Shown: positions 1 to 19,069 of the stretch, piece by piece
How the letters are laid out: each line of letters starts with the position of its first letter
Numbering within the stretch: the stretch's first letter is position 1
From: Gammaproteobacteria bacterium
GTDB taxonomy: Bacteria; Pseudomonadota; Gammaproteobacteria; DSM-19610
Length of the DNA: 24,000 nt
Assembly (NCBI GenBank): GCA_036480335.1
Contig: JAZGGH010000106.1
Location: 12,309-36,308, forward strand
Reading direction: 5' to 3'
Notes under the pieces: generated by a model
Database searches by the model: none
What the model was told of the DNA's origin: nothing
What the model saw: only the letters and a program-made list of their open reading frames with translations
Program-made: the position numbers and the translations under genes

Positions 1-1
1 T

Positions 2-724
2 TTTCAGTTCTTCGAGATTGTGGCAAGAGGCAGCGCAGAGGCTAAAGTCGGGTCGTTTTCTGCATTGCATTAATTGCTGGCTGGGTAAGTGAATGCCATC
101 TGCGCCACTCAGGCGTGCCAGGTTTTCATTGCCATTTACCAGAACGCGAGCATTGAAATGATGTGCGCGTGCAATCAGTTTGCGGGTAAACGCCTGGTAA
201 TTGTCGTCTTGCATGCCCGATTCACGAATCTGAATCAGCCTGATGCCCTTTTCCAGAGCGGTTTCAAGCTTGTCCATAAAAACAGTAACACCCATTTTTT
301 CTGCGCAGGTGATGGCGTATACGTCAGGCAGGCTTAAATGCATCATCAGTTTTTCATTCGCGGGTAGCAGAGGTGAGATGCCTGCCTGGTTCGGATATTC
401 CCAGCTCAGATTTTGTCCTTCATTGCCAATAGGTTCATTTTCCCAGTTTGTTACGCGGAAAAAATGCAGATGGACTCGCCGATCAGGGTAATGATATTCA
501 AAATTCAGCCAGGGGTATGCATTCAGGATATGTATGCCCAATTCTTCATGCAGTTCACGTTTCAGCGCGGATGCAGGACTTTCTCCCTGTTCAATTTTGC
601 CACCAGGGAATTCCCAGTAGCCTTCCCAGGGTTTATCTGGAGGGCGTTGTGTCAGTAATACCTGGCCATTAGCCTGTATTAAAATGCCTGCGGAAACATG
701 GATGACTGGAGAATGACTATTCAT
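2..724 (-). CDS. Nudix hydrolase (MutT-like) fused to a ThiE/TenI-like domain; 3' end runs off the window
   Basis: Absent from the ORF track because there is no stop in the window. My translation from ATG 724-722 stays open to position 2: MNSHSPVIHVSAGILIQANGQVLLTQRPPDKPWEGYWEFPGGKIEQGESPASALKRELHEELGI... This contains a complete Nudix box (GX5EX7REUXEEXGU). The distal part (PDVYAITCAEKMG...IRLIQIRESG...GADGIHLPS...AASCHN) resembles the thiamine-phosphate-synthase-like domain fused to MutT in many proteobacteria. The + strand ORFs at 89-672 are its antisense shadows. Confidence 0.8.
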   Translation of the reverse strand, partial: MNSHSPVIHVSAGILIQANGQVLLTQRPPDKPWEGYWEFPGGKIEQGESPASALKRELHEELGIHILNAYPWLNFEYHYPDRRVHLHFFRVTNWENEPIGNEGQNLSWEYPNQAGISPLLPANEKLMMHLSLPDVYAITCAEKMGVTVFMDKLETALEKGIRLIQIRESGMQDDNYQAFTRKLIARAHHFNARVLVNGNENLARLSGADGIHLPSQQLMQCRKRPDFSLCAASCHNLEELK

Positions 725-730
725 CAGGAT

Positions 731-2218
731 TCAGGGCCATTGAGCCAGCCATGCCTGGCTGGCAGCGGCGGTGATATTCAGAATGCTGTCAGGCCAAAAG
801 CCCGGTAGCAAAATAAGGAGGGTGAGTATTGTAATCAGGAAGAGTTCTCTTGGTCGTAAATCCAGTGAATCCCTGATGACATCGTTGCTGACAGGCCCTA
901 AAAAGCTGCGCCGATAAATACGCAGAAAATACCCTGCGCCGAGGATGATGGCAAATAATGCCGCCAGACCTGCTCCCGTGTGTTTGGAAAGTGCGCTGAT
1001 GATCAGCAATAACTCGGCAGGAAACCCGTTGGTGCCGGGTACACCTATGCTGGCAAGTCCAAAGAAGAAATAAAAGCCTGCAAGTAAAGGCATGGCGGTA
1101 GCAATGCCGCCGAGTCGTATGATATCCGTTGATCCAATGCGGTGATGCAGGAAGCCGGTTAACAGGAAGAGGCCAGCGGAGACGGTGGTGAAATTCAGTA
1201 ATTGAAACAGCGCACCCTGTATACCATTGATGTTGAACGAAGCGATACCCAGCACCACAAGGCCAACGTGACTGATGCTGGAAAATGCCAGCATGCGGCG
1301 TAAGTTTGTCTGTGCCAGTGCCACCAGTGCGCCATAAAGGATACCCACCACGCCAAATCCGGCGAGTAACCAGTGGTATTCGGCAGCAGCCTGAGGTGCC
1401 AATGGCAGAGTAAAACGAATCAGGCCATAGACGCCAAGTTTTAAGCCGGTCATGATGGCGGCAATGGCTATCGGGCCTTCCATTGCAACGGTCGGCAGCC
1501 AGGTATGAAATGGAACCACAGGCACCTTGACGAGAAACCCGAGTAGCAGAAGGAAGAAAACCAGTTGCTGCATGTTAGCTGGCAGGTTCTCTGCTATTAG
1601 CACGGTGTAATCGAAGATTAAACCTTCCGGTATGCCACCACCATTGATGCTGGCATGATTGAATGCCAGCAACAGGAAGCCAAATAATAGAGGGATTCCA
1701 CCGGCCATCATAAACAGCGTGTATTTTACAGCAGCATAGCGTCTGTGTGGGCCTATGCCCCATAAACTGATCAGGAAGTAGATGGGGATCAATGTCAGTT
1801 CCCAGAAAAAGAAAAACAGCATCGTATCGAGCGCACAAAAAATGCCAAGTGTGGTACTTTCGAGCAACAGTAATAAAGTGTAGTAGAGGCGAGGCAGGAA
1901 GGTAACGCCGTTCCAGGAGGCGAGCAGAATAGCATTGAACAGTAAGACAGTCAGGGGCAGAAACAGGACGGAGATGCCATCAATACCTACGTGGTATTGA
2001 ATACCCAGGCTGGGAATCCAGCTGAGCCGTTCAACATACTGGAAGTTCGGGTTGCTACTGTCAAAGCCAAGCAATATGCCAAGCGCGAGAATCAGGTCGA
2101 CAACGGCGGTTGCCAGAGCAATCCAGCGCGAAAAACGTGCCGGAACAAGCCAGATCAGGGCTGCACCGATGGGTAGAGTGATCAGAATCAGGCTGATTAA
2201 AGGTAAACTGCTTAGCAT
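731..2218 (-). CDS. NuoM/NuoN/MrpD-class proton-antiporter-like membrane subunit (paralog 3, last gene of the DAB-type operon)
   Basis: 495-aa polytopic protein. Family signatures are visible: FFFFWELTLIPIYFLISLWG (TM5 Glu), GFLVKVPVVPFHTWLPTVAMEGP (TM7 Lys), GLKLGVYGLIRF (TM8 Lys) and GTNGFPAELLLI (TM12 Glu). It shares a strand with the upstream paralog and starts 23 nt after that gene's stop. Confidence 0.85.
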   Translation of the reverse strand: MLSSLPLISLILITLPIGAALIWLVPARFSRWIALATAVVDLILALGILLGFDSSNPNFQYVERLSWIPSLGIQYHVGIDGISVLFLPLTVLLFNAILLASWNGVTFLPRLYYTLLLLLESTTLGIFCALDTMLFFFFWELTLIPIYFLISLWGIGPHRRYAAVKYTLFMMAGGIPLLFGFLLLAFNHASINGGGIPEGLIFDYTVLIAENLPANMQQLVFFLLLLGFLVKVPVVPFHTWLPTVAMEGPIAIAAIMTGLKLGVYGLIRFTLPLAPQAAAEYHWLLAGFGVVGILYGALVALAQTNLRRMLAFSSISHVGLVVLGIASFNINGIQGALFQLLNFTTVSAGLFLLTGFLHHRIGSTDIIRLGGIATAMPLLAGFYFFFGLASIGVPGTNGFPAELLLIISALSKHTGAGLAALFAIILGAGYFLRIYRRSFLGPVSNDVIRDSLDLRPRELFLITILTLLILLPGFWPDSILNITAAASQAWLAQWP

Positions 2219-2241
2219 GAGAAGGATATTCCGTTACGCAT

Positions 2242-3789
2242 CTATTTCGGACTGACAGGGCTGTCTGTGTGTATTTCCGGTGTTGCATAAATCATTTCGA
2301 GGCTGTCCAGAGAAGGTTCGATCAGTTTCAGCCAGGGTTCTGAGTAGAATCCTGCGCCCAGTAATATCAGAATAATGGTGATTGCCAGAATGCGTTCCAT
2401 AAAGGTGGCTGGCTCCAGTTCTTTTTTGCGTGGTTCTATCTGAGGTGGAGACAGGAAGGCGCGCTGGAAGGACCACAACAGGAAACCTGCTGCAGCAACA
2501 TTGCCGAGGGCTGCTGCAATAGTGACTAAAGCCCCAAAGCGTTTGATGGAGGCTTCCATCATTAAATGTGCTGCATCAAATCCGGGCGTGCCCGGCATAC
2601 CGATAATTGAAAGGCCGGCAATCAGGAAGGCGGTGCCAATAAACGGGAATTGTTCAAACAGGTTCCCCAGTCGCGGCAGTGATAACGTATGGGTGCGGCG
2701 GTATATAAGCCCGGTCATAAACAGGAGCCCGGCGGTAGCCAGTCCGAAATTCACAGAGAGTAGAATACTGCCCTGAAAGCCCAGTTTATTCAGGGTAAAT
2801 AAACCGATAACGATGATGCTTGTATGACTGACGACCGCGTATGCCAGTAGACGGCGCATGTTTGTCTGTATTATTGCGAGTAAAGCAGCATAGAAAATAC
2901 CGATGACGGCAAAGGCGACTACCCATTCATCCCAGAGTTTGATGGCATCGGGCACCAGCGGAAAAACAAAACGGACTAATCCGTAGATGCCTGTTTTTAG
3001 TCCGAGCAGAAAGACGCCGGCGACGGCGACAGTGCCATGCTCGGCCATGACAGGCAGCCAGCCATGCAGTGGAAACAGAGGGATGCGAATCGCCAGTCCA
3101 TAAAACAGGAGAAAGAAAATACTCACGGAGAGAGATTCCGGAAGGGGTTCATTTATCAGGCTTTGCAGTTCAAATGACCAGATGCCGTTATGTGCATCGG
3201 CATAGTTCCAGCCAAGGATAAAGACGCCTGTGAATAACAGGGCTAAACCGGTACCCATGAATTGCAGATAGCGTTGCCGGGCAAGGTCTTCCTTCGGTGC
3301 GTTTGCCCAGGCTTTGAGAATGAAAGCGATTAATATCAGTTCAACTGTTGAAAGCAGCGAGAACCATAATAAATTCTGCGTGCAGAAAAGGCTTTGTAAC
3401 GAGGCTTCGATGGCGAACACAACCGCAATGAATTTTGAATATGGATGGATTTTTCGTATATGTCCATAAAGCACAATCAGCAAGGTAATGATGGTAGTCA
3501 TAAGCATGAATAGAACGGACATACCATCAACGGCTGCATGATAAATAACAGGAGGCAACAGGTCGAAGCGTTCTGATAATTGCAGAGCACTGGTCTTGCC
3601 TTCCAGTGTGTAGTACAGATTAATGGCAATCATTAACTCAGCGATGGAAAAACCAATGGCAGTGGCTAACAGAAGGCGGGAATGTCGCAGCAACAGAACC
3701 ATGCCAAGCGCAACCAGTGGCAATAATTGCAAGGTAGCCAGGATAGGGTATGCGGATTGTGCTGACCAGTGAAGTTCAGGGATGCTCAT
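2242..3789 (-). CDS. Divergent NuoM/MrpD-like membrane subunit (paralog 2) with substitutions at canonical charged residues
   Basis: 515-aa polytopic protein with the family core IPLFPLHGWLPVMAEHGT...GLKTGIYGLVRF. In a by-eye alignment the TM7 Lys is Arg (LAIRIP), the TM5 FWE motif reads LLSTVE, and the TM12 GFxAE reads GFDAAH. The start ATG shares 1 nt with the dabB stop (TAATG, 3787-3791). Confidence 0.8.
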   Translation of the reverse strand: MSIPELHWSAQSAYPILATLQLLPLVALGMVLLLRHSRLLLATAIGFSIAELMIAINLYYTLEGKTSALQLSERFDLLPPVIYHAAVDGMSVLFMLMTTIITLLIVLYGHIRKIHPYSKFIAVVFAIEASLQSLFCTQNLLWFSLLSTVELILIAFILKAWANAPKEDLARQRYLQFMGTGLALLFTGVFILGWNYADAHNGIWSFELQSLINEPLPESLSVSIFFLLFYGLAIRIPLFPLHGWLPVMAEHGTVAVAGVFLLGLKTGIYGLVRFVFPLVPDAIKLWDEWVVAFAVIGIFYAALLAIIQTNMRRLLAYAVVSHTSIIVIGLFTLNKLGFQGSILLSVNFGLATAGLLFMTGLIYRRTHTLSLPRLGNLFEQFPFIGTAFLIAGLSIIGMPGTPGFDAAHLMMEASIKRFGALVTIAAALGNVAAAGFLLWSFQRAFLSPPQIEPRKKELEPATFMERILAITIILILLGAGFYSEPWLKLIEPSLDSLEMIYATPEIHTDSPVSPK

Positions 3790-5357
3790 TACAGAATAAC
3801 CACAAAAGTGAGGAGTAACATTAACAGCAGGTAGCGTGGCCGGCTGAGCATTTCGTCAACCCTGGTGAGTACTTCTCCGAGACGAATAACGGCATGCAGG
3901 ATGCCGTCATCGCCACCTTTCAATACCAGATGCTCTTCAAACCAGTGCAGCAGTGATGCGATCCATTCCATCAGTTTGCCCAGTAAACCGCGACCACGAC
4001 CGATGTCTCCGGAATCGCCGTCCAGTTGCATGCTGTGTGTGCTTTTTTGTTTTTCCCATTGCGCCAGTGATGAGACAGCGCCAATTGAGCCAGGCAAACC
4101 CACCAGTCGATTAACAACCTGCTGGTCGAAGGCTTGTGCATCGCGGGCGAGTGCAAGTGTCGGTTTTACAAATAGCCAGTCAGTTATCTGTTCCAGCCAG
4201 AAACGTTGCAGGGCTGCGGTGTAAAGCTGACGACGTTTTTGAATCCAGGCAGGTACGAAGCGGGTGTGTCCATTCAGTAAATGCATCATGGCGGGTGCGC
4301 TGAGGAAGTGATAGGCGCGCCAGATAGCATGTGCGACAAGATGCCAGAGTGCAAATTCAAACCAGCCCAGCCCACAGGCAAGAAACATCAGTCCGGTCTG
4401 ACCGGTGGTCGAAAACATTAATGCACTTTTGACATCCGTTTGTACCAGGCTGCCAATAAATCCGTAGAGTGCGGTGGCTGCGCCAATGATGGCGATCATC
4501 CACATAAGTTCAGGGGTGTGCATCAATAAAGGTTGCATGCGTATCAGTAGGAAAACGCCGGCATGCACCATCAAAGAGCCATAAAAAATAGCACTTGAGG
4601 GGGTTGGTCCTTCCAGTGATCGTGCAATCCAGGGAGAAAACGGGATTTGCGCTGACTTGGCCATGGCTGCCAACAATAATCCTGAAGCAATCAGTCCGGA
4701 ATGAAGGCTATCCAGAACGCCTGTATGGATAAAGATATCCGGCCATTCTGTACTGTTTATCCAGAAGAAAGATAAAATGATGGCGAGTAAAAAGCCGGTA
4801 TCACCTATTTTGTTAGTCACAAATGCCCGAGTAGCATTGTCTGCGGCGGTGGTGCGTTCATGCGAGTAGGCAATCAGTAAATACGAACAAACGCCAGCAA
4901 GTTCCCAGCCGACAAACATCAGCAGGGTATTGCCGGCCATAACAATCAGCAGCATGGCGGCAGTAAAGAGGCTCATGATCATGAAAAAACGTGGGTAACC
5001 TGCTTCACGATGTAGATAGTTGACCGAGAAATGCAGCGTGATCAGAGACAGCAGGCTGACCAGATGCGCCATAATGAGCCCGGGAGTGTCCAGCAAAAAA
5101 CTGATGTTGATATGATAGTCGCCACTATGAAACCAGGTGAATACCTGAATATACCCCGGCAGTTTCCCGTTTATCAGGGCAAATAGGTCGGCGTACAGGA
5201 GTATTAGAAAAGACAGGGTAGCGGCACTCAGGGCAATGCGCCGGGTTTGCCGTTCACCGGCTTCATCCCGGTTGCTTCCAGAAACATAGCCTGCGGCAAT
5301 CATTAATGCGGCAAGCAGCGGCAGTGCTGGTACACATGCGATAATCCAGTCAGGCAT
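3789..5357 (-). CDS. dabB: DabB: NuoL/MrpA-like membrane subunit of a DAB-type CO2 uptake complex
   Basis: NuoL-class motifs are VGWELAGVCSYLLIAY and AAMAKSAQIPFSPWIARSLEGPTPSSAIFYGSLMVHAGVFLLIRM. It lies immediately downstream of the DUF2309 gene. I place the start at ATG 5357 (MPDWIIACVPALP..., 522 aa) rather than the track's 5444, because the longer ORF would overlap 95 nt of dabA. The chosen ATG sits in ATGCCTGA, an 8-nt overlap with the dabA stop. Confidence 0.8.
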   Translation of the reverse strand: MPDWIIACVPALPLLAALMIAAGYVSGSNRDEAGERQTRRIALSAATLSFLILLYADLFALINGKLPGYIQVFTWFHSGDYHINISFLLDTPGLIMAHLVSLLSLITLHFSVNYLHREAGYPRFFMIMSLFTAAMLLIVMAGNTLLMFVGWELAGVCSYLLIAYSHERTTAADNATRAFVTNKIGDTGFLLAIILSFFWINSTEWPDIFIHTGVLDSLHSGLIASGLLLAAMAKSAQIPFSPWIARSLEGPTPSSAIFYGSLMVHAGVFLLIRMQPLLMHTPELMWMIAIIGAATALYGFIGSLVQTDVKSALMFSTTGQTGLMFLACGLGWFEFALWHLVAHAIWRAYHFLSAPAMMHLLNGHTRFVPAWIQKRRQLYTAALQRFWLEQITDWLFVKPTLALARDAQAFDQQVVNRLVGLPGSIGAVSSLAQWEKQKSTHSMQLDGDSGDIGRGRGLLGKLMEWIASLLHWFEEHLVLKGGDDGILHAVIRLGEVLTRVDEMLSRPRYLLLMLLLTFVVIL

Positions 5358-8300
5358 GTTTGACCGCCGAATTCTGTTGATCGATGAGAGCAGGGGGCAG
5401 TGGCTCAGTATGTCCTTTGTACCAATCTTCAGAGTTGGAAACACGGGTTAAAGGCGTGTTTTCATGTTCCCAGGGAATGAATCCTTCTCCCGGTTTAAAG
5501 ACACTGATTTTGCCTGTTTCAGGATGAATCGCGCTGAGTAATAACCAGCCGTTGCCGACCAGTTGTTGCAGGGGCGGTTGGCGCATATAGATTTTTGTCA
5601 GGGTTTCTTCTGTGGCTTCAACGAGTACCTGTAAGCGCATGGCTTCGTGAATTTCTATCATTTGTTTGGGTAAGCCAGTGCGCAAATCGCTGGATGTTCC
5701 CTGCATGACGCCGAGCAGCCCTGTGACATTATGCGTGACTTTGGAGCCGCAGCCATACTGGTCGTTATTCACCGCCGAGAAATAATATTCGAGGTTGATG
5801 CCGGCGCCAACCGGACCGGCTGTTAATAAGATATTCTCGACAATGCTGCCGTCCGGGTCATAGGCCGGATCGTATGAAATCAGAAACACTCGCCGATCAA
5901 AAAATGCGCTCTGGCTGATGGAGCGCCGACCGATAATGGCGGCAGCATTGGTGGCATGCCCCAGTTCAGGCCGAGCCTGACTAAAATCTTTGCTGCGAGC
6001 GTAGATATGTCTCAACGCTTTTGTTCTGGAATCCCCTTTGGGCGCAGATGCCAGTCGGCGTGAGCGTTCATGTGCAGAACCCAGTGTGGCGATGTACAGA
6101 CCTTTTTGCAGATGGGTAAAGTTTTCCTGCAGCGATGCGGGTATCTGATCGCGGTCATACCAGATGATGTTTTCGTCACAAGTATTATGCTCTGCGCCCA
6201 GCACCCAGGTATCGTCTGGAATATCGATACCGCGTTCGCGCAACAAACGACGAATCGCAGGACGGTTTGCGATGGCGGCAAAAGCGCGAGCATTGGGCCC
6301 ACCATGCCGACCGCTACAGGCGCCGCAATCATAGGCGGCCAGATGGGGATTGTTTTCACTGATGGAGCCATGGCCCATCATGACAACAAAGGGAGCCAGT
6401 GTATGCTGCAGACCGATGGTGCGCAGAAAGCGTTCAATATGGTCTGCCTGCTCTATATCGGTTAAACCAACACGGGGTGTTTCGGGTGTTGCCGGTTTAT
6501 CAGGCTGCTCTGTATTGATCGTGATTTCTGTTGCTACCGGCACACTCAGGGTTTTGCGTTTGTTTTCCAGCCAGCGACCAAATCGGCTATACACCCAGGT
6601 TTTTGATGTCAGTACGGCGAGTGTAACCGGTGCATTTATTAGCACCAGACAGGTGGTTACGAGGAGATTACGGCGTGTTTCCTGGAAAACCAGATTCTGC
6701 AGCTTTTGTCCTGTTGAGAGGCGCTGTTTGCGTTTTTGCAACAGCGCTTCCTGGTGTGGTTGTGGGTGTTCCTGTATTTCATAGGAAGGTGTGGCAACCA
6801 CAGGGCACAGCGGGGTGATTTGTTCATCGTCCAGGCCCAGCCAGTTAATCGGCAAACCAAAAAACCCGCCTGCGCCGAGGGTTTCAATGTCCGGGTTATG
6901 CTCTTCCAAATGTCGCCGCATGCCTTCTTCGCGGTCATCCATGCAGAAAACGATTTGTGCATCGGGTCGTTTATCGCGTGTTTTCCAGAGCCCGCGGCCA
7001 TGATTTTGTATCACGGCATTGAATAACTGATCACGATAATGTCGTTCGTATGCCTGTAGCCAGATAAAGCTGGCCTGATGTTTATCCATGGCTTTAAGGC
7101 AATTAAATATCCTGTCAATCTGGGTTATATCCAGCTTGCGTATTTCAGCATCACTTAAGCCCAGATGTTGTGACAGGCGGAATAGTGGCCAGGCGCTATT
7201 GAACAAATTGTAGCTGCTCGGGTTGCCATTCGATGTGCTGTGTTGCCAGGTCCAGATGAGGTGTGCAAGGTGCCACCATTGCTGTTCATCCGGTGTGCAG
7301 ATGTCAGAACAGTTGAGGTGGTTTTGCGCCAGTGTTGATAAGTATTCGGGCAAGTGTTGGTTATAAAAATTTTGCCGCACCATGAATTCAGCCAGATGGT
7401 GTTTGAAGTACCAGCGAATCACATCAATACTGGCTTCGATCTGCCATAAATTCCGACACAGTCGCTGAGCAAACAGCCGCTCCAGCACCAGTCGCACGGC
7501 AAGATAATCCATCATGTTGACATTGACGTTTGTCAGGCCGTCATAGCCTGGACGGTTATGTCGCCACAGAAACATGCCCGACCATCCCGGTAGCTCAAGC
7601 GCCAGACGTTGCAGGTAGCTTTCCCATTTGCCTTCATCAATTCCGAGCCAGCGTAATTCGATAACAACCGTATCAAAAGCGTCTTCAGGCAAAGCATCTA
7701 GCGTATCTGCCCAATCCGGAAAATCATCAAAAACGCTTGTCTTATCAAACACAGCGCTCTTGCGCCAGAAAGTGTAGAAGCCTTCCTCTCTGCCCGGACC
7801 TGGCCAGGCAGAAAATCCCTGGTCAAGAAAGGCGGCCATATAACGGATCAGTAGTGGCCGCATTTGTTCCAGCAAATCTTCGCCGGTGAGTTTTTTTAGC
7901 ATGCCTTCCAGCGTGAGTTTCTCACCAATTTGACTGAATAATTTATCCATATCACGACGTGCATGTTTGCGGATGAGAAAGTCAATGACAGGCTGATCAT
8001 CAGGGTGATCATCATTTGCCAGCGTTTGTGACAACATGCTTTCAGCTTTTTCCGGTGTCAGGTCAAGCATGTCTTCCGGGTGGGCGATGAAATGATCCAG
8101 ACCCAGTATGTGCAGGCAGGCTGACCATAAATCAAAAATAGCCTGGTGTTCGTTCAGATCAGCTGTTTTCAGCAGGCGTTCGCGCGCAATGCTGTCAATG
8201 TCAGGCTGAAAGGCATGCAGCGCATTCAGTTCACCAAGCTGCCAGTTAATCTGGCATCCGGTGACCGGTTTAATCGGATGTAACAGCCGAGCGAGATAAA

Positions 8301-8643
8301 TATCTGCCTGGGAAATATCGCGGTCTGCTGCTTTGAAAATAATATCGCTGGCTTTGAGGTTGGCTGTTTCGTCAAGTGTTGTGCGCAGCTCGTCAAGTGT
8401 GATACGTCCCTGTTTGAATAAAGCGCGAAATCGGGTTTGTGGCAGATAGCCAAAATTGCCGGTGATCTCGCAGGCTTTTTCCACCGCTTCGGCGAAAGGC
8501 AGATGTTCAAATCCATGCAGGGTATTGTGATGAACGAAGTCTTTGATGGCTGCCTGCCCAGGCAGCACATGCTCCATATGTTGAATAGCACCACGTAAGC
8601 GCTGCAGTATTTCTTCGCGCGGACTGTGAGTCTTTCTAATCAT
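5350..8643 (-). CDS. dabA: DabA (DUF2309 family): beta-carbonic-anhydrase-like catalytic subunit of a DAB-type CO2 uptake complex
   Basis: 1097 aa, with an N-terminus (AIKDFVHHNTLHGFEHLPF) typical of DUF2309. A beta-CA-like metal site is visible: FCMDDRE (Cys567/Asp569/Arg571, nt 6931-6945) and MGHGS...YDCGACSG (His758 at nt 6370-6372, Cys773 at nt 6325-6327). The His-to-Cys spacing of 15 matches what I recall for Halothiobacillus DabA (C351, D353, H524, C539). The gene is translationally coupled to a NuoL-like gene. Confidence 0.85.
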   Translation of the reverse strand: MIRKTHSPREEILQRLRGAIQHMEHVLPGQAAIKDFVHHNTLHGFEHLPFAEAVEKACEITGNFGYLPQTRFRALFKQGRITLDELRTTLDETANLKASDIIFKAADRDISQADIYLARLLHPIKPVTGCQINWQLGELNALHAFQPDIDSIARERLLKTADLNEHQAIFDLWSACLHILGLDHFIAHPEDMLDLTPEKAESMLSQTLANDDHPDDQPVIDFLIRKHARRDMDKLFSQIGEKLTLEGMLKKLTGEDLLEQMRPLLIRYMAAFLDQGFSAWPGPGREEGFYTFWRKSAVFDKTSVFDDFPDWADTLDALPEDAFDTVVIELRWLGIDEGKWESYLQRLALELPGWSGMFLWRHNRPGYDGLTNVNVNMMDYLAVRLVLERLFAQRLCRNLWQIEASIDVIRWYFKHHLAEFMVRQNFYNQHLPEYLSTLAQNHLNCSDICTPDEQQWWHLAHLIWTWQHSTSNGNPSSYNLFNSAWPLFRLSQHLGLSDAEIRKLDITQIDRIFNCLKAMDKHQASFIWLQAYERHYRDQLFNAVIQNHGRGLWKTRDKRPDAQIVFCMDDREEGMRRHLEEHNPDIETLGAGGFFGLPINWLGLDDEQITPLCPVVATPSYEIQEHPQPHQEALLQKRKQRLSTGQKLQNLVFQETRRNLLVTTCLVLINAPVTLAVLTSKTWVYSRFGRWLENKRKTLSVPVATEITINTEQPDKPATPETPRVGLTDIEQADHIERFLRTIGLQHTLAPFVVMMGHGSISENNPHLAAYDCGACSGRHGGPNARAFAAIANRPAIRRLLRERGIDIPDDTWVLGAEHNTCDENIIWYDRDQIPASLQENFTHLQKGLYIATLGSAHERSRRLASAPKGDSRTKALRHIYARSKDFSQARPELGHATNAAAIIGRRSISQSAFFDRRVFLISYDPAYDPDGSIVENILLTAGPVGAGINLEYYFSAVNNDQYGCGSKVTHNVTGLLGVMQGTSSDLRTGLPKQMIEIHEAMRLQVLVEATEETLTKIYMRQPPLQQLVGNGWLLLSAIHPETGKISVFKPGEGFIPWEHENTPLTRVSNSEDWYKGHTEPLPPALIDQQNSAVKHA

Positions 8644-10109
8644 AATGACAGTCCGGAAAAAAGCGCGCCAAGCTGGGCGACAGACGCAGACATCATCGCC
8701 AGGACTGTGTGGGGTGCGATGCCGATGCTAACGATACAAACGGATAATAATCCGGCGGCAGCCACTTCGGAGCCGTGTAGATCCTTGATCTTGTGCATAC
8801 CCGGCCGTACCGGGCCTGTAAACAGGCGGCCGATTGTACGTATCGAATAAGCGGCGCTGATCATAATGCCCAGACTGACCAGCAGCATCACCCAGCCCCA
8901 GCGTTCAAATCCGCCAATGATGGTATGCAGTTCTGCGATGAAACCGGCAGTGCCTGGAATGCCCATTCCGGCCAGTAGTGCCAGTGAGGTGAAAAAGGCA
9001 AAGCGTGGGGTCACCTGAATCAGCGAACTGTAGTGATTAATGTCACGCGTGTTGGTGCGTTCATAGAGCAGGCCGATCAATAGGAACAGGGCTGCCGCGA
9101 CCAGCCCGTGAGCGACCATTTGCATCACTGCACCGCTCAGGCCGGCCTTGTTTAAAGAGGCGATTCCCAACAGAACAATGCCCATATGACTGACTGATGA
9201 ATAAGCAATCATGGCTTTCAGGTCCGTCTGTCGCCAGGCGAGCAGCCCACCATATATCAGGCTGAACAAAGCCAGGCCTGCGAGAATATTTTGCAATGCC
9301 AATGCGGCCTCGGGCAACATGGTGACTGCTCGAATCAGTCCGTAGCAACCCATTTTCAGCAGAATCCCGGAGAGCAGAATACTCACAGGGCTGGGCGCTT
9401 CAACATGCGCAAGCGGTAACCAGCCATGCAGGGGAAAAATCGGCATCTTGACGCCAAAACCCAGTAGCAGGCCGAGAAAAATCAGTATCTGGGTGTGGAC
9501 AGGCAATAATCGGGCGCCGGTGGCGATATCCTCTATATAAAAGGAATGCCCCGGGATCGCATCAAACACAACCAGCAAACTAATCAGCATGAACACGGAG
9601 CCGCCCATCGTGTATAACACAAAATTCAGTGCCGCCTGATGCTTGCGTTTTCCACCCCAGCGATCGATCAGAAAAAATAGTGGGATCAGTGTCAGTTCCC
9701 AGAAGATGTAAAACAGTGACCAGTCCTGTGCCATAAAGACACCCAGCATCGCCGTTTCCAGAATCAACATGAGTGAAAAATAGGCTTTGTAATTTGTCAG
9801 GATTTTATTAGAAACCAGAATAGCCAAAAAACATAGCAAGGTTGCCAGCAGCACCATCGGATAGGAAATCCCGTCGATACCCAGAGCAAAGGAGGTGCCC
9901 AGTCGCGTGTTCCAGGGAGTAATATGGCTGAACTGCAGTGCAGCAGAGGAAAAATCAAAATTGAATAACAGGCTCCACGACAGCGCCAGTGTGGCAACGG
10001 ATGTCGCGATCGCTATGGCGTGGATATGCTTTCGGCTCTGTTTCGGCCAAAAAGCAATCAGTACCGTCCCCAGGAGCGGCATGCCCAGTAATATGGTCAA
10101 TACATGCAT
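8640..10109 (-). CDS. NuoM/NdhD/MrpD-class proton-antiporter-like membrane subunit (paralog 1, first gene of the DAB-type operon)
   Basis: 489-aa polytopic protein with a fully canonical signature set: FYIFWELTLIPLFF, GFGVKMPIFPLHGWLPLAHVEAPSPVS, GILLKMGCYGLIR and GTAGFIAELHTI. Its stop overlaps the dabA start as ATGA (8640-8643). Confidence 0.85.
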   Translation of the reverse strand: MHVLTILLGMPLLGTVLIAFWPKQSRKHIHAIAIATSVATLALSWSLLFNFDFSSAALQFSHITPWNTRLGTSFALGIDGISYPMVLLATLLCFLAILVSNKILTNYKAYFSLMLILETAMLGVFMAQDWSLFYIFWELTLIPLFFLIDRWGGKRKHQAALNFVLYTMGGSVFMLISLLVVFDAIPGHSFYIEDIATGARLLPVHTQILIFLGLLLGFGVKMPIFPLHGWLPLAHVEAPSPVSILLSGILLKMGCYGLIRAVTMLPEAALALQNILAGLALFSLIYGGLLAWRQTDLKAMIAYSSVSHMGIVLLGIASLNKAGLSGAVMQMVAHGLVAAALFLLIGLLYERTNTRDINHYSSLIQVTPRFAFFTSLALLAGMGIPGTAGFIAELHTIIGGFERWGWVMLLVSLGIMISAAYSIRTIGRLFTGPVRPGMHKIKDLHGSEVAAAGLLSVCIVSIGIAPHTVLAMMSASVAQLGALFSGLSL

Positions 10110-10391: not shown

Positions 10392-11540
10392 CTAAAAAGG
10401 TAGCAATATCTCTTTTGCTTTTTCCATTGCGTGGATGGCTAATTCAAGATCAACTTTGTCAGGATTTTCTGCGGACTGGGCATTGAGTTTTTCAAACAGC
10501 TCCGCTTGTTCCCAGGTCCAGTGATTGTCGTTCGTATCTTTAATATACGCTGCCCAGGGGATGAATTTTGTCAGTGGGAAAAGCTGGCCTTGATTGGGTG
10601 AAATATCCACATTCAGGCCGGATATGAACATGACGTTTTTTCCCCGATAAGCGTTGTCCTGCACGATAGTCCTGAACGCCCGATCAAATTCTACCTGGGT
10701 GTTGGCCTGGGCAGCGGTCAGGGCAGGCGATCCAGAAGTGACTATATAAGGCATGACGTCTAGCAGATTATTTTCCAGATGGTCACGACCTTCTTCCTGT
10801 TGCTGGGCCGTTTGTCGGCGAAAAAAGAACATGCCAGGATGCAGGCGATCGCCGATGGGTTCACCTTTGCCGGGCTTCCATTCATACCCTTGCAGGAGAT
10901 TGCGTAATGCAGGTGAGGGTGAGAAAGTTTTTGAGGTGCTCTGGGAGTGGCGTATTATCGGATTACCGCTCGAATCCACTTTAACCAGATCTTCCAGTTT
11001 AAGGATTAAGCCCTGGCTTCTGTCAGCATTATGTAGCTGATTATCAATAATAATTTCCGGGCCGGTTTTGCCCTCGCGCAGCAGAATGTTATTTTTGGCA
11101 AACGTATATTCACTCAGGTACCAGTCCAGTGCGCCACAGATTTTTCCACAGCTTGTGGTTTCTTCCTGCTGCTCAGTCTGCAGGCGTCGATAAACGCCAA
11201 ATGTTCTGGATTGTGGGTCGTATCCAACATGGCTCGCCTGGATGATGACAAGGTCCTTGCCATGATGTGCGTAAGGGCCGTGGCGATCAGTTGCCACGAC
11301 GCCTCCCACCAGGCCGTGGTTGAAGGGGAATGAGCCAAAATGCTTGGCAATCAATATGATAGGGTAGCCCTGGCTTTCGTCAGAACAAAATGCCCGCGAT
11401 GGCATGATTTTACCCTGCTCAAAACCTAGCGATTTAGCCAGATTATAAAGTTTTGGCACAAACAGGCTATATCGCATGGAAGTGGGTAGCATCTGGAAAG
11501 AATCAAGCAAGTCTGCAATTGAGCTGCTGGTGCCGTACAT
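10392..11540 (-). CDS. Soluble uncharacterized protein; candidate LCIB / theta-carbonic-anhydrase-like (beta-CA fold) protein
   Basis: 382-aa ORF with an AGGGA Shine-Dalgarno 6 nt upstream and no long hydrophobic segments. Candidate metal ligands are AFCSDESQGYP (Cys52, nt 11385-11387; Cys-x-Asp), ASHVGYD (His104, nt 11229-11231) and SCGKICGA (Cys131/Cys135, nt 11136-11150). The spacing is close to the Cys46/His102/Cys126 triad I recall for Phaeodactylum LCIB4. That the ORF is coding is solid; the family call is tentative. Confidence 0.5.
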   Translation of the reverse strand: MYGTSSSIADLLDSFQMLPTSMRYSLFVPKLYNLAKSLGFEQGKIMPSRAFCSDESQGYPIILIAKHFGSFPFNHGLVGGVVATDRHGPYAHHGKDLVIIQASHVGYDPQSRTFGVYRRLQTEQQEETTSCGKICGALDWYLSEYTFAKNNILLREGKTGPEIIIDNQLHNADRSQGLILKLEDLVKVDSSGNPIIRHSQSTSKTFSPSPALRNLLQGYEWKPGKGEPIGDRLHPGMFFFRRQTAQQQEEGRDHLENNLLDVMPYIVTSGSPALTAAQANTQVEFDRAFRTIVQDNAYRGKNVMFISGLNVDISPNQGQLFPLTKFIPWAAYIKDTNDNHWTWEQAELFEKLNAQSAENPDKVDLELAIHAMEKAKEILLPF

Positions 11541-11707
11541 AGCAATCCCTGTGATTATGATCGATGCCAGTGTACTTGGCTGGTTTGGTAATCGCCAGTG
11601 CAGGTGATTGAATCGTTAATTAAAGCCGATTCTGATACGATCTCATGCATTTTTAGTTAAAATATTTTTAGAGTCATTGTATAGACGATTGCTTAAAGCG
11701 ATCGCTA

Positions 11708-11733
11708 TTTATATAGATAATTATCTATATAAA
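11708..11733. promoter_or_regulatory. 26-bp perfect palindrome TTTATATAGATAATTATCTATATAAA in the cbbL / LCIB-like divergent promoter region; candidate CbbR (LysR) operator
   Basis: I checked all 13 base pairs on each arm around 11720/11721 by hand. The palindrome lies 137 nt upstream of the cbbL ATG. Its half-site ATTATCTATAT (11720-11730) recurs exactly at 19070-19080, just upstream of cbbR. The adjacent CTATTTATA (11705-11713) recurs at 19103-19111. Confidence 0.45.
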
Positions 11734-11869
11734 AGATAAGAAATTTCAATTGGCATAACTCTAGATGGTCTGTATGCTATATAGCTGATTTTTCACTGTT
11801 CTCTAAAAGTTTTGTTTAAAGGCTTTAAATTTTTCGATAACAATTTATTTGTTCACAGGAGACAACGAT

Positions 11870-13288
11870 ATGGCTAAAACCTATAGTGCGGGTGTAAAAG
11901 AATACCGCGAAACGTACTGGACACCAGATTACTCAGTAAAAGAAACAGACATTCTGGCTGTTTTCAAAATTACACCACAAGACGGTGTTCCTCGTGAAGA
12001 AGTTGCTGCTGCAGTAGCTGCTGAATCTTCAACAGGTACATGGACTACAGTGTGGACTGACTTGTTAACTGACCTTGATTACTACAAAGGCCGTTGTTAC
12101 GCAATCGAAGACGTTCCAGGTGATGACACGTGTTTCTACGCTTTCATCGCTTACCCAATCGATCTATTTGAAGAAGGTTCTGTTGTAAACATCCTTACGT
12201 CTTTAGTGGGTAACGTATTCGGCTTTAAAGCACTACGTGCACTTCGTTTAGAAGATATCCGTTTCCCAATTGCTTACGTTATGACTTGTAATGGTCCACC
12301 ACAAGGTATTCAAGTTGAGCGCGACATCCTAAACAAATACGGTCGTCCTTTATTAGGTTGTACTATCAAACCTAAACTTGGTCTTTCTGCTAAAAACTAC
12401 GGTCGTGCTTGTTACGAAGGTTTACGCGGTGGTCTTGATTTCACTAAAGATGACGAAAACGTAAACTCTCAACCATTCATGAGATGGCGTCACCGTTTTG
12501 ACTTCGTTATGGAAGCGATTCATAAAGCTGAAGCTGAAACTGGCGAGCGTAAAGGTCACTACCTAAACGTTACCGCTCCAACTGCTGACGAAATGATGCG
12601 TCGTGCTGAATATGCGAAAGAACTTGGCGCGCCTATCATTATGCATGACTACTTAACGGGTGGTTTATCTGCAAACACACAGTTAGCTCAATGGTGTCAA
12701 AACAACGGTATGTTGTTACACATTCACCGTGCTATGCATGCTGTACTTGACCGCAACCCGCACCACGGTATTCACTTCCGCGTACTCACTAAAGTTCTTC
12801 GTTTGTCTGGTGGTGATCACCTTCATTCAGGTACTGTTGTGGGTAAACTGGAAGGCGACCGTGACGCAACTTTGGGTTGGATCGACACAATGCGTGATTC
12901 ATTTATTAAAGAAGATCGCTCACGTGGTTTATTCTTCGACCAGGATTGGGGTTCTATGCCTGGCGTAATTCCAGTAGCTTCTGGTGGTATTCACGTATGG
13001 CACATGCCTGCACTAGTTTCTATCTTCGGCGATGACTATTGTCTTCAGTTCGGTGGTGGTACATTAGGTCACCCTTGGGGTAACGCTGCGGGTGCGGCTG
13101 CTAACCGTGTTGCTGTTGAAGCATGTGTTGAAGCGCGTAACTCAGGTGTTGAGCTTGAGAAAGAAGGTAAGGATATCCTTACTAAAGCGGCTAAACATAG
13201 CCCAGAGCTTGCAATTGCAATGGAAACCTGGAAAGAGATCAAATTCGAATTTGATACGGTTGACAAGATTGACGTAGCGCATAAGTAA
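11870..13288 (+). CDS. cbbL: RuBisCO large subunit, form IA
   Basis: [21 protein letters not shown]..., the catalytic [10 protein letters not shown] (carbamylated Lys at nt 12446-12448), HIHRAMHAV and [12 protein letters not shown]. The start is ATG 11870, with AGGAG (11857-11861) 8 nt upstream. The track's TTG at 11849 adds 7 unlikely residues. 472 aa. Confidence 0.97.
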
Positions 13289-13302
13289 AAGTGTCATCTA
13301 GC

Positions 13303-13341
13303 ACGTTCTGGCGGCGTTGTTTTTCGCGCCAGCCAGAACGT
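13303..13341 (+). other. Strong stem-loop in the cbbL-cbbS intergenic spacer (14 bp with one bulge, 10-nt loop)
   Basis: ACGTTCTGGC (13303-13312) pairs perfectly with GCCAGAACGT (13332-13341). Beyond a bulged A13331, GGCG (13313-13316) pairs with CGCC (13327-13330). No U-run follows, so this is not a classical terminator. It is more likely an mRNA stability or processing element. Confidence 0.4.
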
Positions 13342-13389
13342 ACTATCTAACTACTTTTCGCATAAACAAATTATTTTGGAGTAACTCAA

Positions 13390-13749
13390 ATGAGTGATGT
13401 ACAAGATTACAATTCGAGCTTAAGCGATGCTGCTGCAAGCCGTAAATACGAAACTTTTTCATACCTGCCTACTTTGAGCAAAGAATCTACTCGCGCTCAG
13501 ATTCAATATATCGTTGATAAAGGCTGGAATCCGGGTATCGAACACACTGAACCAGAAAATGCATTTAGCAATTACTGGTACATGTGGAAATTGCCTCTGT
13601 TTGGTGAAACCAACGTAGACACTATCATTGCTGAGCTTGAGGCTTGTCATAAAGCCCATCCGGACAATCATGTTCGTCTGCTAGGTTTTGACAACTTTGC
13701 ACAGTCTGCTGGTGCAGCAATGGTTGTTTACCGCGGCATATCTGTATAG
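13390..13749 (+). CDS. cbbS: RuBisCO small subunit
   Basis: 119 aa. [51 protein letters not shown] is a typical form IA small subunit. TGGAG Shine-Dalgarno upstream. The gene lies 101 nt after cbbL. Confidence 0.93.
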
Positions 13750-13775
13750 ATAACAGGTTGTCCTGTCGCTGATTG

Positions 13776-13812
13776 AAGCCTCTGCCGGACGCGTATCTGT
13801 CAGAGGCTTTTT
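13776..13812 (+). terminator. Rho-independent terminator/attenuator after cbbS
   Basis: AAGCCTCTG (13776-13784) pairs with CAGAGGCTT (13801-13809), giving a 7 bp GC-rich core plus 2 A-T pairs and a 16-nt loop. It is followed by a T5 run (13808-13812). Downstream cbb genes start only about 40 nt later, so it probably acts as a partial attenuator. Confidence 0.55.
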
Positions 13813-13852
13813 GCTAAATGCAAGGCAATATTTATTGCTTTAGGGAGTGGGT

Positions 13853-14164
13853 ATGAAGCGACCTGATAAATATATTGGCGTCCACAACGAAGTCAATGGT
13901 GGCATGACCACGATTGGAAAAATTATCCGTGATGCCTGGGTGTTTGATTTGATTGAAGAAACTGAAACCTGTGAAGGCTGGAATTTTGCGGGTATTGATG
14001 CCTTGCTGGATAAGGTCAATCATGAATGGGATAAATATGGTTGTTTAGCAAGTAATTTGCCATCTGAATTGTTTGAGAAACATCAACGAATTCATGGCCA
14101 GGCAATCAAGAATGCTCATGCTGCCGGTTGGTCTGGTGAGGTGGAAACTGAGGATGAAAAATAA
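13853..14164 (+). CDS. Small acidic hypothetical protein encoded between cbbS and cbbQ
   Basis: 103 aa from ATG 13853, with GGGAG (13843-13847) 5 nt upstream. The track's GTG at 13847 adds 2 residues. The sequence is MKRPDKYIGVHNEVNGGMTTIGKIIRDAWVFDLIEETETCEGWNFAGIDALL...EVETEDEK. I recognise no family. Support comes from the RBS, the ORF length and the in-operon position. Confidence 0.6.
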   Translation: MKRPDKYIGVHNEVNGGMTTIGKIIRDAWVFDLIEETETCEGWNFAGIDALLDKVNHEWDKYGCLASNLPSELFEKHQRIHGQAIKNAHAAGWSGEVETEDEK

Positions 14165-14237
14165 ACTATCCGGATAGAATTTATATTTAAGTGTAATTTA
14201 TAATAGAACAAGGTCTTGCAATTAAGAGAGAGTAGCT

Positions 14238-15059
14238 ATGTCCATTACTGAAAATGTTGTAGATACCGAACAATACATCATCAAAGATGAGCCTTACTAT
14301 GAGCCTGTTGGTCAAGAAATAGAGTTATACGAATCTGCCTATGACGTCCGTATGCCGATGATGATAAAAGGTCCTACGGGCTGCGGTAAATCTCGATTTG
14401 TAGAATACATGGCATGGAAACTGGGCAAACCATTAATTACGGTGGCTTGTAATGAAGATATGACCGCTTCTGATTTAGTGGGTCGTTTCCTGCTTGATAA
14501 AGATGGTACAAAATGGCAAGACGGTCCACTGACGACAGCGGCGCGTATGGGTGCTATCTGTTACCTTGATGAAATCGTCGAAGCACGCCAGGATACCACG
14601 GTTGTTATTCATCCACTTACCGATCACCGTCGCAGTCTACCATTAGATAAAAAAGGTGAGTTGATTCAAGCACACCCTGATTTTCAATTGGTTATTTCTT
14701 ATAACCCCGGTTATCAGAGCTTGATGAAAGACTTAAAGCAGTCAACCAAACAGCGTTTTGGTGGTATGGACTTTGATTATCCCGAAGAAAAAATAGAAAT
14801 CAGTATCGTTGCTAAAGAATCGGGTGTTGATGTTGAAACGGCTGAGAAGTTGGTACACATCGCTCACCGTGCACGTAATCTCAAAGGCCACGGCCTGGAT
14901 GAAGGTATATCTACTCGTTTGCTGGTTTATTCTGGTCAGTTAATTGGTAAAGGGGTAGCGCCACTGGATGCATGTAGCATGACAATGGTAACGCCTTTAA
15001 CAGATGATCCTGATATGCGTGATACACTGAATGCAGCGGTTGAAACGTTCTTTGGATAA
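14238..15059 (+). CDS. cbbQ: CbbQ, MoxR-type AAA+ ATPase subunit of the CbbQO RuBisCO activase
   Basis: 273 aa. The Walker A motif GPTGCGKS is at nt 14370-14393 and the Walker B is AICYLDEIVEA. The overall sequence resembles the CbbQ/NirQ/NorQ family, and a cbbO gene lies downstream. Confidence 0.93.
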   Translation: MSITENVVDTEQYIIKDEPYYEPVGQEIELYESAYDVRMPMMIKGPTGCGKSRFVEYMAWKLGKPLITVACNEDMTASDLVGRFLLDKDGTKWQDGPLTTAARMGAICYLDEIVEARQDTTVVIHPLTDHRRSLPLDKKGELIQAHPDFQLVISYNPGYQSLMKDLKQSTKQRFGGMDFDYPEEKIEISIVAKESGVDVETAEKLVHIAHRARNLKGHGLDEGISTRLLVYSGQLIGKGVAPLDACSMTMVTPLTDDPDMRDTLNAAVETFFG

Positions 15060-15249
15060 AGAGTTCACTACCTTCATAATAATTGAAGGTAAGTAAGCTT
15101 GCTGTCATGCAGCAGGTTAAATTCGCAAAAATTTAGAAATTTTTAGTTTCAAATAAGTGCTGTTATTTAATAAGTGTGATAGTACTTATCAATGCCAGTC
15201 ATGTCGCTTTTTGTAAAAGAGAATAGTGATTGGTGAATGAGATGAAATT

Positions 15250-17598: not shown

Positions 17599-17599
17599 C

Positions 17600-18043
17600 T
17601 CACGGCAGTGCCAATATTTTAGCTCCCTCGATGGGTAGCTGTTTGTCACGGTAGCGTTGATCAAGTAATTCCATTGCCTGGCGAAACTCTGCAATCAGAC
17701 GAAGTTGCAAATCACTGTTATTCTGTTCATAGAAGACCACTTCACATGGCATAGGATCAGTGAGCGCATCGCGGTCATGCGAAGAAGGGAATTTCCATGA
17801 AACCAGAATCATTCTGCCGCCTTCTTTTTCCCCAACAGCGTACGATTGGCTATCAACAAATACAATTTCATTGCTATCCAGTACTGCCATGAATTGCAGC
17901 GTGCGTATCGGTACGAATACATGGCCGGTCTTGCTGCGAACCTGTAAAGAATGGTAGAGGTTATATATATTGGCAGGCACCTGCCAGTTTCTACGGCTCA
18001 TTTCTCTGGGGAGAAAAAAAGTTTCAGTCACGATGGAGGTCAT
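17600..18043 (-). CDS. Hypothetical protein (147 aa) downstream of cbbR, convergent with cbbO
   Basis: An AGGAGAG Shine-Dalgarno lies about 7 nt before ATG 18043. Its stop (17600-17602) is separated by a single nt from the cbbO stop (17596-17598). I recognise no motif and see no hydrophobic helices. Confidence 0.6.
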   Translation of the reverse strand: MTSIVTETFFLPREMSRRNWQVPANIYNLYHSLQVRSKTGHVFVPIRTLQFMAVLDSNEIVFVDSQSYAVGEKEGGRMILVSWKFPSSHDRDALTDPMPCEVVFYEQNNSDLQLRLIAEFRQAMELLDQRYRDKQLPIEGAKILALP

Positions 18044-18122
18044 GTTTTTGCTCTCCTGAGTTCTATCCAGAACTGTATCTTACCGCATATTGATACGTTG
18101 GTTAAATTGAAGATGGGCTGGT

Positions 18123-19064: not shown

Positions 19065-19069
19065 CAGCT

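Follow-up and report, generated by a model that had tools for sequence, protein, structure and literature searches.

The 24,000-nt stretch of DNA analysed here (the window; positions 12,309 to 36,308 of contig JAZGGH010000106.1, assembled from a gammaproteobacterium of lineage DSM-19610) contains, at positions 731–10109 of its minus strand, an array of five genes which combines a DAB-type CO2-hydration pair, dabA and dabB, with three genes for antiporter-like membrane subunits, here called M1, M2 and M3, in the order M1-dabA-dabB-M2-M3. The first gene of this putative operon, M1 (8640–10109), encodes a NuoM-type antiporter-like protein of 489 aa (PF00361, E 7e-71), and is followed by the genes for the long-form beta-carbonic-anhydrase-like cytoplasmic subunit DabA (5350–8643, 1097 aa; PF10070, E 2e-237), the NuoL-like subunit DabB (3789–5357, 522 aa; PF00662 and PF00361, with NuoL models as its best NCBIfam matches), the divergent NuoM-type subunit M2 with an altered charge axis (2242–3789, 515 aa), and the last conserved gene, for the NuoM-type subunit M3 (731–2218, 495 aa). 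M1, M2 and M3 scored 485, 291 and 461 bits with the NCBI NuoM model TIGR01972, all above its cut-off of 263.8 bits. An independent gene caller run on the source contig returned identical products of 489, 1097, 522, 515 and 495 aa; the list of open reading frames (ORFs) had given dabB as a 551-aa GTG-start ORF, and the ATG at 5357 was preferred since it fits the start of the NuoL model, the gene caller and the lengths of the homologues. Gene content, order and coordinates agreed with an earlier reading of the bare sequence (the first-pass annotation), and the junctions, read on the minus strand, were exactly as given there: an ATGA stop/start overlap between M1 and dabA (8640–8643), an 8-nt overlap, ATGCCTGA, between dabA and dabB (5350–5357), a 1-nt overlap, TAATG, between dabB and M2 (3787–3791), and a 23-nt spacer between M2 and M3 (2219–2241). 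Scans for promoters and terminators gave counts near the shuffled expectation and were not used.

The conservation of this arrangement was assessed in a scan with one genome per GTDB species, which gave at least 589 DabA relatives, of which the best 80 (DabA 46–75% identical, all of ~1,090 aa) were taken with 10-kb flanks and their ORFs annotated by BLAST against the window proteins. The complete M1-dabA-dabB-M2-M3 array was present on one strand in 61 of the 80 loci, and a further 15 contained a sub-string of the array ending at a contig edge, which bore out the expectation of the first-pass annotation that the five-gene order would be syntenic with dabAB in relatives. About four loci depart from it: two Methylococcales metagenome-assembled genomes (MAGs) with an orphan dabA, one locus with frameshifted M1 and dabA, and one without dabB in the remaining 2 kb. 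In every case each M gene best matched the window gene at the same position. The tight junctions recurred as well, with an overlap or a gap of at most 30 nt in 77–92% of the loci (M1/dabA 67/73, dabA/dabB 62/68, dabB/M2 55/62, M2/M3 43/56), and the 8-nt overlap was the commonest form of the dabA/dabB junction (26/68). The pairwise-identity matrices of the five proteins correlated with r of 0.76–0.91 (55 complete loci). The hosts are found among the Gammaproteobacteria (Thiohalophilus, Sedimenticola, Thiodiazotropha and Solemya symbionts, Thiothrix, Chromatiaceae, Acidiferrobacterales, Methylobacter, Methylomicrobium and Crenothrix), the Betaproteobacteria (Nitrosospira sp. NpAV, Nitrosomonas sp. 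Nm132, Sulfuricella and Thiobacillus) and the Magnetococcales. On these comparisons the five-gene unit is old, inherited as a block and under selection.

Several of the loci have peculiarities of their own. A Thiothrix MAG (L026:8439-23111) has a tandem dabA-dabB duplication, giving M1-dabA-dabB-dabA-dabB-M2-M3, and the two orphan genes (L061:7989-11240 and L069:1879-5115) are lone long dabA genes amid housekeeping genes (methyltransferase, Ham1, APH and EamA), with no PF00361 gene detected within ~10 kb. A locus binned as 'Candidatus Bathyarchaeota archaeon' (L016, JAIVTC010000400.1) contains M1-dabA-dabB with 52–62% identity to the window, and its label probably reflects binning contamination rather than an archaeal copy. 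In Methylomicrobium lacus a second, two-gene DAB (L070:3265-7784, minus strand; DabA of ~870 aa, DabB 32% identical) lies back-to-back with the five-gene operon, which makes this organism a convenient comparison system, as one genome holds both architectures. An apparent DabB-M2 fusion ORF in L015 was rejected as a frameshifted assembly, since part of dabB sits in another frame, and no DabB fusions were present among the best 120 DabB homologues.

DabA matched PF10070 (the DabA/DUF2309 family) with 790.7 bits over residues 20–1034, and the solved DabA2 structure (9rd0_A) with an E-value of 2.5e-72. Its CxDxR zinc-site motif reads CMDDR (C567, D569, R571; 6931–6945, minus strand), aligned to FCIDVR of DabA2, and the second pair of ligands, H758-N14-C773, reads HGSISENNPHLAAYDC (6325–6372, minus strand), aligned to GHGS...DCGAC, so that C567, D569, H758 and C773 align with the zinc-ligand motifs of DabA2 (C351, D353, H524 and C539). 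These motifs were invariant in an alignment of 12 diverse long DabA homologues. The PF10070 match and the zinc-ligand motifs place the 1097-aa protein in the DAB family, as the first-pass annotation had done from the same ligands. The sole hydrophobic segment of DabA, residues 660–678 (6610–6666, minus strand; a single Kyte-Doolittle peak), is likely to be a membrane-inserting finger or elbow motif: it aligns with the DabA2 region bearing the finger-like motif, and A671, P672, L678 and K681 are conserved.

The window DabA is ~270 residues longer than DabA2 (about 125 more N-terminally, 89 internally and 38 C-terminally), the additions lying mainly at the N-terminus and in the stretch that links the first conserved block to the catalytic core. 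Long homologues of ~1090–1140 aa form at least 120 clusters. The DabA family clustered at 50% comprised 1,760 representatives with an E-value of 1e-30 or better, and the best matches graded from full-length alignments (~25 representatives, 41–65% identity) to other long DabA types; judged by these matches, the long-DabA clade is without a sharp boundary. Seven representatives are longer still, at 1250–1437 aa (P0380, P0381, P0385, P0386, P0394, P0395 and P0399). Fusions with DabB had been suspected here, but the four that were scanned with Pfam (P0381, P0386, P0394 and P0399) show PF10070 alone and so have larger insertions instead.

DabB scored 222 bits with NdhF1, 181 with E. coli NuoL, 110 with DabB2 and 97 with NdhF3. 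It is thus nearer to true NuoL/NdhF1 than to DabB2, which by the scores against DabB2 places it outside the expected DabB1/DabB2 grouping, and in a tree that held no DabB1 or DabB2 it grouped with E. coli NuoL in 50/50 bootstraps. Its AlphaFold model superposes on TM1-11 of E. coli NuoL (TM, transmembrane helix) with a root-mean-square deviation of 1.8–2.5 Å (1.8 Å over ~360 residues). The membrane subunits were aligned to E. coli NuoL, NuoM and NuoN and their key positions then checked in 56–73 orthologues; E152, R/K183, D186, K234, H265, D308, H343 and R347 of DabB were invariant in 69 orthologues, with K310 also kept. By hydropathy, the C-terminal region (3792–4277, minus strand) consists of ~140 non-hydrophobic residues (361–503) followed by one hydrophobic helix (504–522), and residues 374–429 align weakly (domain i-E 5.6) with NdhF1 568–623, the lateral-helix region. 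The model is of low confidence past residue 414, and a protruding lateral helix, sought as a sign of neighbouring subunits, could not be judged from residues 414–522, for which the predicted local distance difference test (pLDDT) score was <50. DabB carries a Glu at the position of NuoL E144, where DabB2 has Ile151; this residue was considered as a marker of a DabB with neighbour subunits and rejected, since the two-gene DAB of M. lacus retains the same Glu.

The three M proteins were of the NuoM type by their PF00361 and TIGR01972 matches, by their matches in the PDB and by phylogeny, as had been proposed for the extra genes. In bootstrapped neighbour-joining, all three families grouped with E. 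coli NuoM, apart from NuoN and NuoL, in 47/50 replicates (the M1-NuoM pair in 36/50), with M1, M2 and DabB each monophyletic in 50/50 and M3 in 31/50, and with M2 and M3 as sisters in 33/50. No M subunit grouped with NuoN, giving one L type and three M types, without an N type. M1 was the most conserved of the five proteins, with a mean identity of 62% compared with 51% for DabA, and its best PDB sequence matches were ND4/NuoM, with NdhD1 and NdhD3 scoring as well as NuoM. Its residues E138, K221, K252, H308, H334 and E393, equivalent to E. coli NuoM E144, K234, K265, H322, H348 and E407, were invariant in 73/73 orthologues, and in M3 the residues E140, K231, K260, H317 and E402 were invariant in 56/56. 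M2, for which E. coli NuoM was the best PDB match, differs: its orthologues have T, A, V or L in place of the TM5 Glu and A or V in place of the TM12 Glu, and retain R235 (TM7, always Arg), K265 (TM8) and H408 (beside the TM12 position) in 63/63 and the H322 equivalent in 59/63. The suggestion of several working channels in the first-pass annotation is therefore upheld for M1 and M3, which are predicted to be working channels because their full sets of NuoM proton-path residues are invariant, and not for M2, which is probably a modified channel or a connector rather than a canonical channel. The M subunits are under selection for function, given that the sets of residues in M1 and M3 and the altered set in M2 are each invariant.

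The partners that define the known machines of this type were sought and not found. No NuoA/H/J/K, Mrp small-subunit or redox-module genes were detected in the window or in the 10 kb beyond its left end (the M3 side), and clustering of all flanking ORFs of at least 80 aa within 5 kb of the array in the 80 loci yielded no recurrent small membrane protein and no recurrent Nuo, Mrp or redox subunit, so that the lack of NuoA/H/J/K, MrpB/C/E/F/G and redox genes remarked in the window extends to its relatives. There were no ORFs for MrpB/C/E/F/G or an extended MrpA, with the Mrp NCBIfam models scoring far below their cut-offs (155 versus 542–586 bits for the MrpD type); DabB failed the NdhF3 model TIGR01960 (150 bits, cut-off 588.7), and none of the scanned window ORFs was of the CupA or CupS type. 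By gene content, the five-gene system is neither complex I, Mrp nor NDH-1MS, because their defining partners were looked for and not found.

The surroundings of the operon in the window point to inorganic-carbon metabolism. Upstream of M1, at a distance of 282 nt and between the operon and cbbL, lies a gene for a 382-aa protein (10392–11540, minus strand) resembling LCIB/theta-carbonic anhydrases (PF18599, E 4.5e-5), separated by a 308-nt divergent region from a form I RuBisCO cluster on the plus strand (11849–17598) consisting of cbbL, cbbS, a 105-aa ORF, cbbQ and cbbO (Pfam RuBisCO_large, RuBisCO_small, AAA_5/CbbQ_C and VWA), with a LysR regulator farther past the cbb genes. The PF18599 score of the 382-aa protein (23.3 bits) is just under the cut-off of 25, and most of its 2,500 homologues carry PF18599. 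A PDB sequence search with this protein returned nothing relevant; with its structural model (pLDDT 66; putative active-site loops <50), the six best Foldseek hits in the PDB were all of the LCIB family (E 1.6e-4 to 2e-2). C52, D54, H104 and C131 are invariant in the homologues, and C52, H104 and C131 are the presumed zinc ligands. As far as the model allows, this neighbour is probably an LCIB/theta-type carbonic anhydrase, and such a gene adjoins the five-gene operon in 7–8 loci. What a cytoplasmic carbonic anhydrase would do beside a pump that accumulates bicarbonate is hard to see, unless the enzyme is regulated or confined to a particular site.

Other neighbours recur among the related loci. 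A SulP/STAS gene was found on the same strand in 19 loci, usually just upstream of M1 with a median gap of 189 nt (e.g. L057:485-2662, plus strand), and a protein of ~370–430 aa with a match to the CsoSCA catalytic domain is encoded next to M3, on its downstream side and in the opposite orientation, in eight loci, including that of Nitrosospira sp. NpAV (PF20686, 24.2 bits with a cut-off of 21.5, at L041:17913-19205, minus strand; also at L030, L047, L048, L049, L057, L058 and L065). Phosphoribulokinase (PRK) was present in five loci, cbb genes in three and a CitMHS-type transporter in 7–8. To judge from the LCIB-like neighbour in the window and the CsoSCA-like and SulP neighbours in other loci, the five-gene DAB may form the core of an inorganic-carbon island of varying content; no carboxysome genes were seen in the part of the island within the window.

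The remaining features of the window are described briefly. A NUDIX/ThiE-like gene (1–724, minus strand) starts 6 nt past the M3 stop codon, runs off the window and is not conserved in related loci. Farther downstream of M3 the source contig encodes a Psr/Dms-type molybdoenzyme and ATP sulfurylase, and the host is probably a sulfur oxidiser. The G+C content is 0.48–0.53 across the DAB operon (window 1–10000) versus 0.41–0.46 over the cbb genes and the rest (11000–24000), a contrast that could stem from the codon content of membrane proteins or from horizontal acquisition. Two ORFs without a Pfam match lie beside cbbQ and cbbO (13847–14164, plus strand, 105 aa; 17600–18043, minus strand, 147 aa); both recur near cbbO in Nitrosomonas (L071 and L076, 37–43% identity), and the 105-aa ORF also in L001, and they may be uncharacterised RuBisCO-associated proteins.

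Two DAB systems of known structure provide the frame for interpretation. In DAB2, DabA2 holds a buried beta-carbonic-anhydrase-like site, and TM4-11 of DabB2 form a NuoL-like half-channel that is completed by the finger motif of DabA2 (PMC13144422); activity requires the half-channel and finger residues and the proton-motive force, not sodium (PMC13144422; 10.1101/476713). In the cryo-EM structure of DAB1 a third subunit, DabC, aligns with the NuoM helices that adjoin NuoL and so occupies the NuoM position beside DabB; it lacks a proton path and is required for function (bioRxiv 10.64898/2026.05.01.722082). The description of DAB systems as two-gene units in the first-pass annotation thus fits DAB2 and does not fit DAB1.

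Our favoured interpretation, which we regard as fairly probable, is that the five genes encode one five-subunit DAB-type complex driven by the proton-motive force, that is, a free-standing, redox-independent, vectorial carbonic anhydrase whose membrane arm would consist of four antiporter-like subunits. By analogy with the solved DAB1 and DAB2 structures, DabA would sit on the cytoplasmic face of DabB with its hydrophobic hairpin inserted into DabB, and inward proton flow through the membrane part would gate or drive one-way hydration of CO2 to bicarbonate, which would be trapped in the cytoplasm to serve RuBisCO and other carboxylases. The three NuoM-type subunits would most likely be aligned beside DabB, as NuoM and NuoN are beside NuoL and on the side taken by DabC in DAB1; the position of DabC at the NuoM site indicates that DabB-type subunits use their NuoM-side surface. 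M1 and M3 may be coupled to DabB via the central charged axis, with M2, which keeps the central Arg, Lys and His, acting as connector or modified channel. More speculatively, the extra channels might provide a larger driving force or allow pumping at low proton-motive force, or one of them might export the proton released by hydration. The inorganic-carbon context (RuBisCO cbbLSQO and the LCIB-like, SulP, CsoSCA-like and PRK neighbours) is consistent with this interpretation. Physical co-assembly, stoichiometry, subunit order, coupling to protons rather than sodium, the direction of flow and a raised H+/CO2 ratio are what we infer for such a complex.

Several observations weigh against a single five-subunit complex. 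The binding of M1, M2 and M3 to DabAB is deduced from synteny and co-variation, which would also be expected of co-regulated separate machines, and a few genomes (L061 and L069) have a long dabA with no membrane genes nearby. In DabB, no long lateral helix by which three more subunits could be clamped is predicted with confidence (its C-terminal 110 residues have pLDDT <50), and the Glu it shares with NuoL E144 is not diagnostic of neighbours. A continuous charge relay through the four subunits is not assured, because M2 is without the acidic coupling residues of TM5 and TM12. A counterpart of DabA2 Glu444, which is essential in DAB2, was sought in the finger motif of DabA, where it aligns, weakly, to N670; this position is not conserved, with A, S, I or L in most orthologues. 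Finally, for lithotrophs short of energy, spending three or four H+ on each CO2 would be extravagant.

One alternative is that the operon encodes two co-regulated machines, a two-subunit DabAB pump and a separate M1-M2-M3 cation or proton transporter that supports it, for instance by disposing of hydration protons or by providing a sodium gradient for SulP-type bicarbonate transporters. DabAB pairs alone are active in other systems (10.1101/476713), M1 is encoded across dabA from M2 and M3, and the upstream SulP/STAS genes and the CitMHS-type transporters would suit such a role, although most loci have no SulP. However, PF00361 antiporter-like subunits are not known to work without an L- or MrpA-type partner and small subunits, none of which were found nearby, and M1 is joined to dabA by the ATGA overlap within an interleaved order that is fixed across three bacterial classes; we therefore regard two machines as unlikely, though worth keeping in view.

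Alternatively, the L-plus-three-M module with DabA could dock on a redox core encoded elsewhere, so that electron transfer drives hydration, as for NdhF3/NdhD3/CupA. The ndhF3-ndhD3-cupA operon, too, is confined to the specialised L-type, M-type and carbonic-anhydrase-like parts, and the greater similarity of DabB to NdhF1/NuoL than to DabB2, the grouping of M1 with genuine NuoM and its equal scores with NdhD1 and NdhD3 would be in keeping with docking. Against this, a core with its own NuoN would, on gaining four antiporter-like subunits, have an arm of a length without precedent, neither the operon nor its recurrent neighbours included a NuoN-type subunit, a linker or a redox gene, DabB falls far below the NdhF3 model cut-off, and DAB complexes work without engaging complex I (10.1101/476713), which together make docking improbable.

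Similarly improbable is a reverse or homeostatic role, in which CO2/bicarbonate chemistry would build membrane potential or control pH rather than accumulate carbon. Many of the hosts are type I methanotrophs, which assimilate most of their carbon through the ribulose monophosphate (RuMP) pathway, which speaks for such a role. The COGNAT study suggested that YbcC might drive ion export (PMC5700660), and MpsAB was first described as a membrane-potential-generating system (PMC6689103). The DAB2 and DAB1 data nevertheless favour one-way hydration that consumes the proton-motive force, and the operon lies head-to-head with RuBisCO in the window and near PRK, SulP and carbonic-anhydrase-like genes elsewhere. 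The loss of two canonical charged residues from M2 might suggest that the NuoM-like genes are duplicates in decay or without function that merely travel with dabAB; this is effectively refuted by the conservation of M1, M2 and M3, which are all full length, have positional orthologues in 55–73 genomes spanning 46–75% DabA identity and keep their key residues invariant, with M1 more conserved than DabA.

As far as is known, non-photosynthetic autotrophs capture CO2 mainly with DAB pumps, which are also candidates for engineering carbon-concentrating mechanisms in crops and industrial microbes. The first structures of DAB1 and DAB2 are as recent as 2026, and each presents the complex as DabA with one proton channel, a picture of the family that would change with a widespread third architecture of up to four antiporter-like subunits. 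Among the carriers of the five-gene DAB are groups of ecological importance (nitrifiers, sulfur-oxidising symbionts, methanotrophs and Magnetococcales), with Nitrosospira sp. NpAV, Nitrosomonas sp. Nm132 and M. lacus on offer as cultured hosts. In its most specific form, our proposal is of one free-standing complex with a complex-I-type arm of one L and three M subunits and with no quinone module or Mrp small subunits, powering one carbonic-anhydrase site; we put this forward tentatively, as a prospect a little short of even. If this is true, a stand-alone chain of antiporter-like subunits would be seen here for the first time; it would offer a natural setting in which to study how charge or proton signals pass laterally from one subunit to the next, and could expose the coupling rules of complex-I-type subunits through a simple, non-redox read-out. 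It would also form an evolutionary bridge and suggest an origin for DabC, with DabB still NuoL-like, DabC the vestige of an M subunit and the two-subunit DAB2 the fully reduced form.

An association of this kind has been remarked before. The COGNAT study of 2017, which predates the assignment of the DAB function and proposed an exergonic ion-exporting enzyme, noted of regions with ybcC upstream of a nuoL homologue that such a neighbourhood 'frequently contains' SulP (COG0659) and NuoM (COG1008) genes (PMC5700660). Its 'clade C' ybcC neighbourhoods show the same association as our loci; the fixed five-gene order, the three M families and the residue patterns were not reported there. For its DabB tree the original DAB study set aside genes "with divergent operon structure" (10.1101/476713), and five-gene operons go unmentioned in a review of inorganic-carbon toolkits from 2024 and in the two structure papers of 2026. 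Beyond COGNAT, no account of the five-gene form came to light in a search that left most subscription journals outside, so that an earlier description is possible. The first-pass annotation knew of no characterisation of the system; none was found here either, though NuoM genes had already been noted near ybcC.

Among systems of known function, the cyanobacterial CO2-uptake complexes NDH-1MS and NDH-1MS' (NdhF3/F4, NdhD3/D4, CupA/B and CupS) share with the five-gene array the encoding of L- and M-type subunits with a zinc-containing CO2-hydrating protein. NDH-1MS is a vectorial carbonic anhydrase at the end of the membrane arm, driven by electron transfer via the shared NDH-1M core, and its CupA is unrelated to DabA. 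In the array described here there are, instead, three M-type genes without any trace of a core, and DabB matches NdhF3 (6tjv_F) more poorly than NdhF1. Like the Mrp antiporters (MrpA-G), it is redox-free and based on PF00361, and MrpB/C/E/F/G were not found. With the NuoL-NuoM-NuoN arm of complex I it has in common an L type with M types carrying the axis of TM5 Glu, TM7 Lys, TM8 Lys and TM12 Glu, whereas its DabB lacks TM12-15 and the TM12 Lys, its antiporter-like subunits number four rather than three, its catalytic partner is a carbonic anhydrase, and NuoN-type, NuoH/A/J/K, Q-module and N-module components are missing.

The closest relatives are the DAB systems themselves. As in DAB2 of Halothiobacillus neapolitanus (PDB 9rd0), a PF10070 protein with a Cys-Asp-(Arg)-His-Cys zinc site and a likely hydrophobic hairpin is paired with a PF00361 NuoL-like partner that matches TM1-11 of NuoL, and there are no redox partners; unlike DAB2, which has two subunits, the array comprises five genes, with a longer DabA and a DabB closer to NdhF1. 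DAB1 (Thermocrinis albus and H. neapolitanus) shares the order of dabA before dabB, a long DabA (at least ~1,000 aa) and extra membrane protein, with DabC on the NuoM side of DabB. Compared by its published description, however, DabC is approximately half a NuoM, belongs to no Pfam family and has hydrophobic residues at the NuoM proton path, whereas M1, M2 and M3 of the array are all NuoM-type proteins of full length, and the path residues are complete in M1 and M3. The five-gene system would thus be a third DAB architecture, beside the two-subunit DAB2 and the DabC-containing DAB1.

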